Source: a virus. From it: a stretch of DNA of 64,000 bases. The translations under genes and the position numbers were made by a program. The notes under the pieces are model-generated. The model was not told the origin of the DNA, made no database searches, and worked only from the letters and a program-made list of their open reading frames with translations. Shown here one piece after another: positions 22,005-27,027 of this stretch. The DNA lies in the IMG/VR virus record IMGVR_UViG_3300047496_000092, positions 1-64,000 of that record. One strand, 5' to 3'. Position 1 is the first letter of the stretch. The number at the start of each line of letters is the position of its first letter.

Positions 22005-25000
22005 TGGCTGCACTGCAAGCACTGTTTGTCGGTGCAGACGATAGCGAGACGTGTGCCGGTTGCGAAGACGCGATGGACGGCAACCCGTATGACGTAGACG
22101 ATTGTCCTGAACCCGGCTCGTTCGAATGCATGTCGCGGTGCAGACACATGATTCAGCTTGTCGGCGGGGATGAAGACGACGACGAAGCCGAGGGTCCAAC
22201 GCTACGCTATGTCGGCAGTGTTGGCTTTGAACCGAACAACACACCGTTCTCGGCATTCCCCTCGCTCGTTGACGAAGACGTTCCCGAAGTACCGACGCCT
22301 GAAGGCCATGAGCAGATGGCGAAAGCGAGTGCAGAGCCCAACCTTGACGACTGGGAACAGAACCCGACTGCGCTCAACGAACTGCTCGGCATCAACTTCG
22401 CCGATCTGTCAAACGACGACATCCAAACGCTCGCCTACAAGATCATCAACACCGGGCTCGACCCCGAAGACATCGTAGACGGCCTCGCGCTTACACCGGA
22501 CGAAGCCGATAAGCTGACCGCAGCCGCTGAAGATGCTGAAGGCGAATTGGTTGACGACTTCGGCGATATGTACATTGCCGAACTGTTGGATGACGGCAGC
22601 GATGTTCGTATCTTCGACATGATGCAGAACAACCATCGCATCCACGACATCATCTTAGCGATGGCATCGGCCGGATTCGATGACGAGCATGCGAATCAAG
22701 CGATCACACTCGCATCGGTCATCAACATGTTTGCTTCAGGTGCGGTCGCATACATCGGTCAAGATGGCCGTTGGTATGTGACGGTTCCGACCGGCTTTCA
22801 AGAATCGCTGCGTGAAGGTGGAGCAGGGAGTGGCGATCATGGTCATGCTGACGTACCTGGTCGGCGTGGTGGCAGCGCACCAGCAACGACGCGCCACTAT
22901 CTGATCAGTGGTCGTGTGCAAGGCGTCAAGTTTCGTGCGAACGCCATCGACGCAGCCAATCAGTTAGGCATCCACGCAGATGCGCGCAATTTGCCTAGCT
23001 CGCAGGTCGAGATTCAAGCTAGCGGCGACCCCGACAAGCTAGATCAGTACGAAGCGTACCTGCACAAAGGCAACCCCGGCTCTATCGTGACCAGCGTTTC
23101 AACACTGCCGGGGACGATGAAATCGCTATCGGAATTCAACCCAGGTGAGATTGGGCCTGATCGCAAGAACTTCAGTAGCGAGGAAGAGTTCAACAACTAC
23201 TTCGGCTTCACGAAGGTTGCTGGCGGTAAGCTCGGTGACGGTGTAAGCTGCACAGCGTACTACGAGCGTCCGATCACGCTCTCGACGCGGTTCCTTGCGT
23301 CATTGCCGCGTCGCTATCAAGCATCGACGTATTCAGCCTGGAACGCTAAGTATAACGACCCTAATCATGTGCAGTGGAATCGTGTTGACGCTATTGCAGA
23401 CGAGATTCGTCAGCGTCACTATGGCGATGTCGTCACCGTACAGGTCACACCAGACGGCAAGCCGACCATCAGTGAAGGCCAGTGGATTATAGACAAAGCC
23501 GAGAAGGATGGCTCGAAGAACATTCGTACCGTCGTGCAGTTCTTTGGCGGTGGCGAAGGCTTGTGGACGCCATACAACCACCTGCAAGAGTCGCTGCGTG
23601 AAGGCGGTGCAGGTAGCGGCGATTACGGTCACGCAGGCCGACCCGGAAAAGTTGGAGGTAGTCTCGGAACAGATCGACAGATCAGTGACGACTATGCTGC
23701 GAACTTATCTAGAATCGACCCTATCGTGAAATCCTTCGTAGACGACAATGTGACTACGGAGAACTTTGACGGCATTTTGTACCGTACAGCGCGTACGGCT
23801 AGAGATGCCGACGAGATTAAGCAGGGCCGAAAATTCTACAACACAGACGCTGAGTCAGGAACGTACGGGCCAGGACTGTACTTTGCTAGCCTAGAGAAAT
23901 CGGCTGAGATGTACGGTAAGTGGATGTTCAAAGTGCATGTGACGGCTAAACTAGCCTCAATGGATAGAAAAGCCTACATGAAGCTTCTTGGTGCAATCTA
24001 CGCAGGTGGAGAAGACGGCGATGAGCTAGCTAAGAATCTTATAGCAGACTGGTTTCAATCGCACGGCTACGATGGTATACGCATTCGCAATGTTGTGCCT
24101 AACACTGCGCGCACAAACGATGGCGATTACATCGTAGACTTCAAAGCTGATCAGACATTGAAAGGCTTCGTTGAAGCAGAAGCTGGTGCTGTTGATGCTG
24201 TCATTCTGTGGAAGCGTTCATTACTTGAAGGCGGTGCAGGCAGTGGCGATCACGGACATGCTGGCCGTAAAGGATTCGTCGGGGGTAGTGCGCGTGGGTA
24301 CAGTGCAGATACCCTGACCGGCTACAGCGATGATTCGATGCACGGCTACAGTTCAGACTCAACGAGCGGCTACAGCAATGATTCGACAACCGGCTCAAGT
24401 GCATGGGCAAATCCGTTCACTACGATGTCAACTGGGACGCCTGAAGTTACCGTCAATCCGTTCAAAGGCTTCGACGGAATCAAAACTTTTCGGGGCACAG
24501 ATGAGCAACTATCCCAGGTTGGCGACATTCTTCAACGGTTCGTACCGCCAGCCATGCGATCACAGATCAACGGCAACATCTTCTGTCTCACGCCTGACGA
24601 GAAATTCGTTGGCGTCTCACCATCGCTCACAGCAATGCAGAATGCAGGCAAACTTGGTGTTAACCTAGACGCGCTGCAGCTTGGTGGACTGACGGTGTAC
24701 GGCGACAAAACGCTCTACATCAGATCAGGGCAGATTACCGACACGACCGTCATCCATGAGATGGGGCATCTCTACGATCAGACGCTTGGTGACGGCAAGA
24801 AGCTGTACTCTGAATTGTCGGGGTCAGAAGTCAACGAGGCATGGCAGGACGCGAACAACAACCCCAACGGTTCGCTTGCCGATCACTTCGTCACGCCGTA
24901 CGCAAGCAAAGGAACGGACGAATTCTTCGCTGAATCGTTCCGTGCCTACTGTGGTGCCAACAGCTATCTGTTCGAAAGCAAGTTTCCGAACATGATTGCA

Positions 25001-25069: not shown

Positions 25070-27027
25070 AGCAACTGATCGCATCCGGCTCAAACCTTGA
25101 GACTGGCATGCTGGTTCGCGTGTACGACGACGGCTCTGTCGAACATGAGCAGTCTGTCAATCTGTTTGAAGGTGGTGCAGGTAGCGGTGATCACGATCAT
25201 CCTGGTCGCCCTGGAAAAGTTGGCGGCTCAGCACCGCTTGGTCTTGATCGTAAAATCAGCGATGTGTACGCGAAGCTCAACCCAAGAGTTGGGGCGAAGA
25301 TGGAAGAACTTGTCGCGAAGAACGTCAAGGCCACGAACTTCGACGGCGCACTCTATCACGCCATGCACAAAGGCGAGCATGCGGACAACCTAAAGCACGG
25401 TATAGATCGGTTCTACAATACGGACGACAAAGGCGCGTATGGCCCAGGGCTCTACTTTGCTTCGCTTAAAAAAGAGGCGGCTAACTACGGCGACGCCATG
25501 TTCAAAGTGCATGTTGTTGCTAAGCTAGCCGACATGTCATCTGAGCAGTACATGACGCTTGCGACTACGATGCAATCCGCTATGAGAGGACATACAAAAG
25601 TAGACGAGGTTACTGAAACCACTAACAATTACATTGCCGATTGGTTTCAGTCGCACGGTTACGACGGTATGCGTGTCCGTGATGTTGGTGGGCGCTTTGC
25701 CACTTACAGCAACGGCGACTACATTGTTGACTTCAATGCCGGTAAGACGCTAAAGAATCTTGAGTCTCAAGCAGATGCCCCTGTCGTTGATCTTGTTGTA
25801 TTGTGGAAGCGTCCATCATCGCTGACTGAATCTGGAACAGCTTCAAGCGGCGATCATGGGCATGCTGGCCGAAAAGGTCAAGTTGGCGGCTCGCTGTCTA
25901 GTGCTGATCAAGGGCTCAAAGACTACATTGACATGTACGTCAAACTCAAAGAGCTACACCCAAAGATGGTACTGTCGCCGCTGATCGAGAAGCTATTGGC
26001 GGGAGATGGCAAATTCTACACGCCACAAACACTACCGTCTCAATACTCCAAAGGCACACCGAAAAACTGCTTTCAAGATGCCGCTAACCTTGCAATGGAC
26101 CATCCTGATTTGACATACGTCGAGGGGTACGCAACGACCGGCATCATCCCAGTTCATCATGCATGGTGCGCTGACAAAGACGGTAAGGTGATCGACCCAA
26201 CATGGGCGGCGCTAGGCGATAATGACGAAGGTATAGAGCATCGTTCGTACTACGGTATCCCAATTCCGACTGACGAGTTGACTGCACGAATCATCAAGAA
26301 GAAAACGTGGGGATTCTTCGAAACTGACTATCCAGTAGACGAAGCAACACTGCGTGAAGTCGGCACGTCGTCAAGTGGTGATCGTGGTCATGCTGGTCGT
26401 AAAGGTAAGGTTGGCGGTAGTACACCAGGTTCAGACAGTCAAGACGCTTCCAGCACTCGCGAAGTCCCAAACTTCCCCGGTTTGAAGTTTGTCGGTAGTC
26501 AAAAAGATGCTGACACGTTTGCTGAAGTGGTGAACAAGTACGTCCCCGAGAAGATCAAAGAGCAGATCACTGGTAAGATCATGTTCTTGAACGACAAGTT
26601 TTACTGGCAAGTATCAGATGAACTAAAGAAGCACAGGCTCTTCCTAATGAGTCAAAATCCGGCAGGCGTTACCGTTGTAGCCGAAAATGCGATTTACTAC
26701 AGAGATACAAGTCCGTTCACGATCATCCATGAACTAGGCCATCTCTACGATTTGTCGTTAGGCGGTGGCAAACAGTACTTGTCATCTCAAACAGGTACAC
26801 TGCCGTATGAAACGTACGCGAACATTACGAGCAATCTTGAGAGCAAAGAGACGTTCGTTGATCAGTACGCAAGTACGGGGCGCGATGAGTTTTTCGCCGA
26901 GAGTTTTCGAGCATTTACTGACGCACCCGTACCTGAAGGAACCGCACCTGATTGGCAGGTCAGTAAATCTAAACTCAAAAAGTCAACACCAAGCATGTAC
27001 AAATTCTTCGAGGATAAGGCGAAATGA
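25066..27027 (+). CDS. polyvalent protein: PARP-like ART / transglutaminase-like Cys-His-Asp fold / ATLF-like zincin
   Basis: A 653-aa ORF with three junction motifs. ALYHAMH...GPGLYFASLKKEAANYG...GDYIVDF is PARP-like. NCFQDAANLA...VHHAWC...VIDPTW is transglutaminase-like. IIHELGHLYD...YASTGRDEFFAESFRAF is ATLF-like. Confidence 0.75.
   Translation: MKQLIASGSNLETGMLVRVYDDGSVEHEQSVNLFEGGAGSGDHDHPGRPGKVGGSAPLGLDRKISDVYAKLNPRVGAKMEELVAKNVKATNFDGALYHAMHKGEHADNLKHGIDRFYNTDDKGAYGPGLYFASLKKEAANYGDAMFKVHVVAKLADMSSEQYMTLATTMQSAMRGHTKVDEVTETTNNYIADWFQSHGYDGMRVRDVGGRFATYSNGDYIVDFNAGKTLKNLESQADAPVVDLVVLWKRPSSLTESGTASSGDHGHAGRKGQVGGSLSSADQGLKDYIDMYVKLKELHPKMVLSPLIEKLLAGDGKFYTPQTLPSQYSKGTPKNCFQDAANLAMDHPDLTYVEGYATTGIIPVHHAWCADKDGKVIDPTWAALGDNDEGIEHRSYYGIPIPTDELTARIIKKKTWGFFETDYPVDEATLREVGTSSSGDRGHAGRKGKVGGSTPGSDSQDASSTREVPNFPGLKFVGSQKDADTFAEVVNKYVPEKIKEQITGKIMFLNDKFYWQVSDELKKHRLFLMSQNPAGVTVVAENAIYYRDTSPFTIIHELGHLYDLSLGGGKQYLSSQTGTLPYETYANITSNLESKETFVDQYASTGRDEFFAESFRAFTDAPVPEGTAPDWQVSKSKLKKSTPSMYKFFEDKAK
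25168..25230 (+). repeat. junction motif copy 5
   Basis: EGGAGSGDHDHPGRPGKVGGS, in gene 25066..27027. Confidence 0.9.
25828..25893 (+). repeat. junction motif copy 6
   Basis: ESGTASSGDHGHAGRKGQVGGS. Confidence 0.9.
26356..26421 (+). repeat. junction motif copy 7
   Basis: EVGTSSSGDRGHAGRKGKVGGS. Confidence 0.9.

Follow-up and report, generated by a model that had tools for sequence, protein, structure and literature searches.

Locus organization

The DNA analysed here (positions 1 to 64,000 of the IMG/VR virus record IMGVR_UViG_3300047496_000092, hereafter the window) encodes a pair of ADP-ribosyltransferase (ART) modules, which are located in long genes downstream of those for the terminase large subunit and the portal protein (Table 1). 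The first of three long mosaic open reading frames (ORF1, ORF2 and ORF3) begins 5 nt after the end of the portal gene, and the stop and start codons of ORF1/ORF2/ORF3 overlap, as in translational coupling. Each ART module comprises approximately 190 aa and lies in frame within one of the long ORFs. ORF2 is composed, in this order, of a Cys-rich/acidic N-terminal domain, a linker, an acylphosphatase followed by an unassigned domain, a linker, an ART module of the R-Y-D type, a linker, GYSxDSxx repeats and a zincin peptidase. In ORF3, a short N-terminal peptide is followed by a linker, an ART module of the H-Y-D type, a linker, a Cys/His domain of unknown function, a linker and again a zincin peptidase.

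This is the architecture of the "polyvalent proteins" described by Iyer, Burroughs, Anand, de Souza and Aravind (2017, PMC5512222): mosaic ORFs follow the terminase (TerL) and portal genes, an HExxH domain is present in each of them, and ART domains occur in two copies. An earlier note on this DNA, which had been made from the letters and described the pair of modules, missed the context that explains the pair, namely polyvalent proteins adjoining a portal gene, the linkers and the zincin peptidases.

Table 1 Features of the terminase-to-ORF3 region, with nucleotide positions in the window
Feature	Position	Strand	Remarks
Terminase large subunit	16299..17912	+	PHROG 675, E 9.8e-112
Portal protein	17909..20596	+	PHROG 21 / 10963, E 7.5e-13 / 1.1e-11
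ORF1, 467 aa	20601..22004	+	Conserved domain at the N-terminus (aa 1-195), followed by a linker and a zincin peptidase domain with HEMGH at nt 21663
Linker copy 1	21192..21257	+	EAGTASSGDHDHPGRPGKRGGS
ORF2, 1021 aa, polyvalent protein	22004..25069	+	Order of parts in the text
Linker copy 2	22814..22876	+	Variant, EGGAGSGDHGHADVPGRRGGS
Acylphosphatase domain, ORF2 aa 298-367	22895..23104	+	PF00708, E 1.6e-14, 54.4 bits (cut-off 22.5); NCBIfam acylphosphatase models agree
Linker copy 3	23600..23662	+	EGGAGSGDYGHAGRPGKVGGS; directly upstream of ART module 1
ART module 1, ORF2 aa 554-742	23663..24229	+	LYR (Arg at the His position), YGPGLYFAS, MYG, GYDG, GDYIVDF; PF18760 E 0.033
Linker copy 4	24227..24289	+	EGGAGSGDHGHAGRKGFVGGS; directly downstream of ART module 1
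ORF2 peptidase motif	24755	+	HEMGHLYD
ORF3, 653 aa, polyvalent protein	25066..27027	+	Order of parts in the text
Linker copy 5	25168..25230	+	EGGAGSGDHDHPGRPGKVGGS; directly upstream of ART module 2
ART module 2, ORF3 aa 56-256	25231..25833	+	LYH, YGPGLYFAS, NYG, GYDG, GDYIVDF; PF18760 E 0.005, PARP E 0.1
Linker copy 6	25828..25893	+	ESGTASSGDHGHAGRKGQVGGS; directly downstream of ART module 2
Linker copy 7	26356..26421	+	EVGTSSSGDRGHAGRKGKVGGS
ORF3 peptidase motif	26728	+	HELGHLYD

Two anciently duplicated modules

The two modules had been placed by the earlier note at 23666-24226 and 25234-25827 as paralogs, and the domain boundaries set by the flanking linkers agree with these limits within a few codons. 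Aligned by BLASTP, the modules are identical at 96 of 192 positions (50%, E 4e-57). The motifs listed at that time, FDG[AI]LY[HR], YGPGLYFASL, NYG/MYG, WFQSHGYDG[MI]R[VI]R and GDYIVDF, are all present and aligned, and the reported His/Arg difference is confirmed at the codon level, with ALYHAMH in ORF3 (codon CAC) and ILYRTAR in ORF2 (codon CGT).

Codon identity of the two copies amounts to 0.62, 0.71 and 0.39 at positions 1, 2 and 3, respectively, and the same codon is used at 48 of the 98 residues that are identical between the modules. Synonymous sites are thus saturated, which indicates an old duplication with both copies under purifying selection on the protein; the same codon-position values speak against a recent repeat or a chance likeness of the modules.

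Assignment to the ART fold

An alignment of 11 family sequences was compared by hhalign with bona fide ART-PolyVal domains, yielding a probability of 97.6% (E 4.3e-12) with the YH, YGPGxY and G[YF]DG motifs in register. The target consisted of three Pfam-validated domains, from L001 (a protein from a viral contig, at least 2,824 aa long, whose ART domain scores 80 bits to PF18760), L058 (76 bits) and Roseovarius Plymouth podovirus 1 (RPP1, 36.5 bits), the latter being the source of the published prototype (vRNAP-like protein CBX87992.1). The hidden Markov model (HMM) of the family matched the ART-PolyVal domain of L001 with an E-value of 3e-9, the alignment extending from YGPG via GFDG to GDFWVAF.

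Searched against PDB sequences, the family profile gave PARP10 as top match (E 0.0026), followed by PARP1, tankyrases and PARP3. In these alignments the family His falls on the catalytic His, YGPGlYFA on YGKGVYFA, and the Tyr of NYG on the SANY Tyr of PARP1. PARPs make up most of the 99 PDB profile hits; among those listed, the exceptions are protein G and CoREST chains, which align with another part of the profile. A profile of two sequences, run against the PDB, returned noise only.

In Pfam scans, PF18760 (ART-PolyVal; gathering score 31.2 bits) was matched at E ≤ 1 by eight of the ten aligned family modules, and also by P0010 and the ORF2 copy, which were scanned separately. The best match in the family was that of the closest relative, the P0006 module, with 31.1 bits against the cut-off of 31.2 (E 4.8e-7). 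The PARP profile (PF00644; cut-off 26.7 bits) was matched by several family modules, at best with an E-value of 4e-4 and 20.4 bits, and by the ORF3 copy with 12.5 bits. The modules do not belong to the PARP family proper, as they score below its curated cut-off and carry Asp instead of the catalytic Glu. DUF3990 was matched by one family module, and three single weak matches to other families were at chance level.

An AlphaFold2 (AF2) model was built on the 11-sequence alignment (predicted local distance difference test, pLDDT, 69.6; predicted template modelling score, pTM, 0.69). A fold search of BFVD with this model retrieved models named "Large polyvalent protein associated domain", "PARP catalytic domain" and "PolyVal ADP-ribosyltransferase" with E-values of 1e-4 to 5e-3 and a probability of 1.0, and four of the top nine viral hits were named polyvalent, PARP or PolyVal ART (probability 0.9-1.0). 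The 50 best PDB fold hits are dominated by PARP2, PARP3, PARP1, PARP10, ParT, diphtheria toxin, NatT and HopU1. By structure comparison the model has the split beta-sheet of the ART fold, with C-terminal strands that are not confidently modelled. Placement in a non-ART fold was looked for by both profile and fold search, and it was an ART fold that was found. The modules are ART-fold domains on the PARP/diphtheria-toxin-like (H-Y-E-type) side of the superfamily, so that the PARP-like assignment of the earlier note stands, given the homology to ART-PolyVal and the best PDB profile matches to PARP10 and PARP1.

Rank 6 among the PDB fold hits was taken by 9k3a_B, a chain of 1071 aa from the cyanophage A4 pre-ejectosome (E 0.31, TMq 0.31). 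It may represent a solved ejected protein with an ART-like domain, with a score that is too weak to rely on.

Active-site positions

For the ART family that occurs in polyvalent proteins of phages and plasmids, a His in strand 1, a Tyr in strand 2 and an Asp in strand 5 have been described (Iyer et al. 2017, PMC5512222), and the family was grouped with Tox-ART-HYD2, a clade related to PARPs and to cholix and diphtheria toxins (PMC5512222). H-Y-D, which had been read as a non-canonical configuration, is thus the published signature of the family to which the modules are homologous; it is the family norm, and only the Arg-for-His exchange in one copy is unusual.

In strand 1, LYH of ORF3 aligns with YHGT of bona fide members, and ORF2 has LYR. 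Both copies carry YGPGLYFAS, a motif that does not vary within the family and that aligns with YGPGIYLAT of L001 and YGKGVYFA of PARP10. The His, the Tyr of YGPGLYFA and the Tyr of NYG align with NAD-binding residues of PARP10 and PARP1. Towards the C-terminus, GDYIVDFNAGK aligns with GDFWVAFDPNQVK of L001; the Asp of GDYIVDF and that of L001 fall on approximately the same PF18760 column, as judged from the match end-points, and the former corresponds by inspection to the Glu of NEYIVYD in PARP1.

Two further acidic residues were considered for strand 5. The invariant Asp of GYDG was set aside, since, by inspection of the sequence alignment, GYDG corresponds to the non-catalytic YDS strand of PARP10-type enzymes and GDYIV to NEYIV. 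D157, in the C-terminal VDLVVLW strand, was rejected because its position is not conserved.

The Arg copy in ORF2

Of the 11 family sequences, 10 have His at the strand-1 position, as do all the bona fide ART-PolyVal domains that were inspected; the ORF2 copy alone has Arg. The exchange would fit a dead pseudo-enzyme that binds NAD+/ADP-ribose, acts as a decoy or serves to space the structure, and leaves the ORF3 copy as the sole enzyme. Inactive, His-less members of the PARP family do exist, and the residue that follows the GYDG strand is N in ORF2 (RIRN), compared with D in ORF3 (RVRD) and in five of the nine other aligned relatives. We nevertheless regard a loss of activity as somewhat doubtful. 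All remaining NAD-site motifs are intact in the ORF2 copy (YGPGLYFAS, MYG, GYDG, GDYIVDF), and its protein motifs were kept while synonymous sites became saturated. Moreover, ARTs of the R-S-E clade normally contact NAD through an Arg at the equivalent structural position (PMC5512222), and YRG-type ART-like modules are found in other polyvalent proteins (L015, L084 and L099). As the other motifs were kept and purifying selection has acted since the old duplication, the ORF2 copy is probably a functional variant, with an altered NAD+ contact or another target, rather than a decayed copy.

The modules of L015 (ORF aa ~1385-1520), L084 and L099 follow the pattern VCYRGV ... Y(G/D)DGLYFST ... SGYD ... 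(E/D)DYYVVLN and are located in portal-fused or linker-containing polyvalent proteins. Their matches to ART-PolyVal and to the family HMM are weak (E 0.005-0.2). They may constitute an R-type branch of polyvalent ARTs, of relevance to the R-Y-D copy.

Distribution of the family

A profile search of 1.84 billion proteins retrieved seven representatives as non-self relatives of the family, six of which are large mosaic proteins carrying the same linker, the remaining one (P0009) being a stand-alone cellular protein. In a word-indexed protein search, neither the ORF3 module nor the RPP1 ART domain gave a match, and the family profile gave P0009 and P0010 only. Pattern-based locus scans returned one viral contig, and nothing in metagenome or genome collections. 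ORF3 has no entry in the contig index. The family is a rare and divergent subfamily of ART-PolyVal below the Pfam threshold. The modules are new divergent members of a known phage ART family, and prior work explains, for the most part, the H-Y-D/R-Y-D configurations that had been read as non-canonical.

A conserved linker between the domains

The domains of ORF1-3 are set apart by seven motifs of ~22 residues, [LM][RK]E-GGAGSGD[HYR][GD]H[AP]GR[PK]Gx[VR]GGS, which occur nowhere else in the window. The copies are 62-81% identical as DNA, so it is the peptide that is conserved. Its general form is [LM][RK]EGGxGSG[ND]xGHxGR[PK]GxVGGS. A degenerate DNA pattern for G[ND]xxHxGRPGxxGGS was found in at least 120 viral-contig stretches (L006-L125), with up to nine per contig; the GGxGS located upstream, which the search pattern does not force, is ~100% conserved (consensus KGGPGSGNFGHAGRPGEVGGS). 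The linker sits between unrelated domains in many different mosaic proteins. It is mentioned neither in Iyer et al. (PMC5512222) nor in the literature covered by full-text string searches, and tblastn with the linker peptide gave no match, probably owing to low-complexity masking.

The linker may be a processing or packaging signal. If it is a processing signal, this would explain how polyvalent proteins are dismantled and would allow domain boundaries to be predicted automatically. In its spacing, the N/D-x-x-H core matches the NPTH loop at which FlhB/YscU undergo self-cleavage.

Proposed mode of action

The modules are probably divergent ART-PolyVal members (Tox-ART-HYD2 clade) of the PARP/diphtheria-toxin-like H-Y-D type, which would act as virion-delivered mono-ADP-ribosyltransferases; they are encoded in two of the three coupled mosaic genes. 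By analogy with the published polyvalent model and with T4 Alt, the ORF1-3 proteins would be made late together with the head genes, packed in the capsid and injected with the DNA; virion delivery has been predicted for the polyvalent ART family (PMC5512222; PMC9503650). The C-terminal metallopeptidase or some other protease would free the modules from the polyprotein at the conserved linkers, which we infer to be cleavage sites because of where they lie and how well they are conserved. Using NAD+, the ART domains would then mono-ADP-ribosylate proteins of the host at an early stage of infection, in the way T4 Alt does. Activity is predicted for the ORF3 copy (H-Y-D). The Asp in place of the PARP Glu predicts mono- rather than poly-ADP-ribosylation, PARP Glu988 mutants being the established basis for the requirement of Glu in poly-ADP-ribosylation.

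Several observations weigh against this reading. Both window modules remain under the gathering score of PF18760, with 15.4 and 17.9-18.0 bits against 31.2. In the PDB fold search, scores were weak, with all E-values ≥ 0.067 and template modelling (TM) scores ≤ 0.42. The AF2 model is of low confidence over residues 124-153, a segment that includes GDYIVDF; the Asp of this motif is a putative strand-5 acid placed by alignment, where the model is unreliable and ahead of which the hhalign alignment stops. Among the relatives this Asp is variable, being G in P0006, K in P0008a and absent in P0009 and P0010, and two bona fide ART-PolyVal domains have T or I at the position. PARP10 is likewise non-acidic (I) there. 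Finally, several linker-bearing relatives are devoid of an HExxH domain in the same polypeptide, which renders the connection between peptidase and linker uncertain and makes another protease or self-cleavage possible.

The modules could also be active on a target other than a host protein, either on nucleic acid in the manner of DarT or Tpt1, as the earlier note had suggested among its options, or as NAD+ glycohydrolases that reshape the NAD+ pool or counter an NAD+-based defence. The ART superfamily does act on DNA, RNA and small molecules as well, NAD+ is central to phage-host conflict (PMC9503650), and no target is known for any ART-PolyVal domain. We consider such a target clearly improbable, because the nearest sequence and fold matches (PARP10, PARP1, tankyrase, diphtheria toxin, ParT) modify proteins, the clade was placed beside protein-modifying ARTs (Iyer et al., PMC5512222), and neither DarT nor Tpt1/KptA was found among the Pfam matches listed at E ≤ 1 or the 50 best PDB fold hits. 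Most likely, the modules function as mono-ADP-ribosyltransferases that the virion delivers and that act on proteins of the host.

That the ART likeness is a chance similarity of short motifs in another fold can hardly be right: the single Pfam and PDB E-values of the window modules are marginal (0.005-0.1), AF2 on a two-sequence alignment was unusable (pLDDT 34.5) and the C-terminal third of the second model is unreliable, but the profile-profile and family-HMM comparisons with bona fide ART-PolyVal domains, the PARPs prevailing among the PDB profile hits and the polyvalent and PARP names among the viral fold hits all oppose it, and the only recurring Pfam matches over 12 family sequences belong to the ART clan (ART-PolyVal, PARP, DUF3990).

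A more far-reaching proposal combines two claims. The R-Y-D copy would work with an R-S-E-type Arg on an H-Y-D scaffold, giving two injected ARTs that differ in NAD+ handling or targets, and the ~22-residue linker would be a general, undescribed cut or packaging signal that strings effector domains together in many unrelated phages and that either is cut by the zincin peptidase or cleaves itself at its N/D-x-x-H core. Both claims together are unlikely to hold.

Neighbouring domains and genome context

A zincin-type domain closes each of the three ORFs, with weak, sub-threshold matches to Peptidase_Mx1, M90 and ATLF. The HExxHxxD form, to which Iyer et al. (2017, PMC5512222) drew attention in polyvalent proteins of the phage type, is present in the peptidases of ORF2 and ORF3, and ORF1 has HEMGH. 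The peptidase domains of ORF2 and ORF3 are 35% identical (E 4e-31), which suggests that an ART-plus-peptidase cassette was duplicated. PHROGs and NCBIfam provided no name for ORF1 or ORF3.

The N-terminal domains of ORF1 (20601-21185) and ORF2 (22004-22798) are conserved and gave no family match. In the related contig L005, the counterpart of the ORF1 domain is encoded by a gene of its own (193 aa; 41% identity, E 4e-53), and the gene order there is that of the window: a RecA-like protein, terminase, portal, the 193-aa gene and a polyvalent protein of 1837 aa. The ORF2 domain in turn matches the N-terminus of this polyvalent protein, with homology to P0006; it has a CxxC...C...CxxxCxH cluster followed by an acidic region, an arrangement common to P0005, P0006, P0008 and L064. 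Both N-terminal domains are candidate virion-targeting or portal-binding modules.

In the acylphosphatase domain of ORF2, the GRVQGVKFR signature and the Asn are intact. Its sole PHROG match is 20167, of unknown function, and the word "acylphosphatase" was not found in Iyer et al. 2017 (PMC5512222). Immediately behind the third ORF2 linker and ahead of the peptidase domain, a tandem 24-nt repeat (24296-24391) encodes GYSADTLT, GYSDDSMH, GYSSDSTS and GYSNDSTT.

The linker-bracketed domain of ORF3 (25894-26349, aa 277-428) shows a Cys...His...Asp pattern, KNCFQDAA ... VHHAWCADKDGKVIDPTW, which recurs in a module of the unrelated L063 polyvalent protein as ECYRNAF ... FAHAWVIENSTGKVIDNTW. The domain may represent a cysteine peptidase of the papain or transglutaminase type; searches of Pfam, PHROG and PDB sequences gave no match for it.

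Within window positions 24001-30000, the G+C content drops from ~0.57 to 0.49-0.52 over ORF3 and the small downstream genes (27188-29971) and then rises to 0.585. The small genes gave no PHROG match. This low-G+C stretch may have been acquired more recently.

Among 50,697 phage records, no terminase exceeds 29% identity to that of the window. In the same records, the 5-kb region had no DNA match by blastn, and neither the ART module, the N-terminal domains of ORF1 and ORF2 nor the ORF3 peptidase domain had a match by blastn or tblastn. The phage is far from anything catalogued.

Comparison with known systems

The modules add a rare and very divergent branch to a family of phage-delivered ARTs that was predicted from sequence and for which no characterised member was found. 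With an H-Y-D and an R-Y-D paralog as a tractable pair in one phage, the locus would offer a natural experiment on the role of the strand-1 residue in this clade. Of broader interest is the architecture, the ART modules being neatly flanked by a highly conserved linker that is also present in at least 120 viral contigs.

With ART-PolyVal (PF18760, Tox-ART-HYD2; CBX87992.1) the modules share the H and Y positions (ORF3 copy), the putative D position and the G[YF]DG strand, and with bona fide L001 also the GD-aromatic-h-V-x-F strand. The setting is shared as well, that is, multi-domain phage proteins with zincin peptidases and several ART copies per locus, adjoining head genes. They differ from ART-PolyVal in that a long insert of helices separates strand 3 from the GYDG strand, that a helical segment is added at the N-terminus and a strand (VVLWKR) at the C-terminus, ahead of the linker, that scores stay below the gathering threshold (15-18 bits) and that one copy has Arg instead of His.

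The likeness to PARPs (PARP10, H-Y-I; PARP1, H-Y-E) extends over LYH (LYHGT/LWHGS), YGPGLYFA (YGKGVYFA/FGKGIYFA), NYG (SANY) and, by inspection, GDYIVDF (NEYIVYD). Unlike PARPs, the modules have Asp for Glu and are devoid of the PARP helical regulatory domain and other accessory domains; the E-values reach just 0.003-0.1, and the modules are part of a putative virion-associated phage mosaic protein, not of a cellular enzyme. DarT and Tpt1/KptA share the superfamily fold with the modules and have different active-site motifs.

T4 Alt (Alt/VIP2) differs from the modules in belonging to the R-S-E clade, in not being part of a polyvalent protein and in having no detectable sequence relation to them. 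It is as a functional model that it compares with them, being an ART that is packed in the head, enters the cell along with the injected DNA, and modifies the host RNA polymerase and other proteins (PMC5512222).

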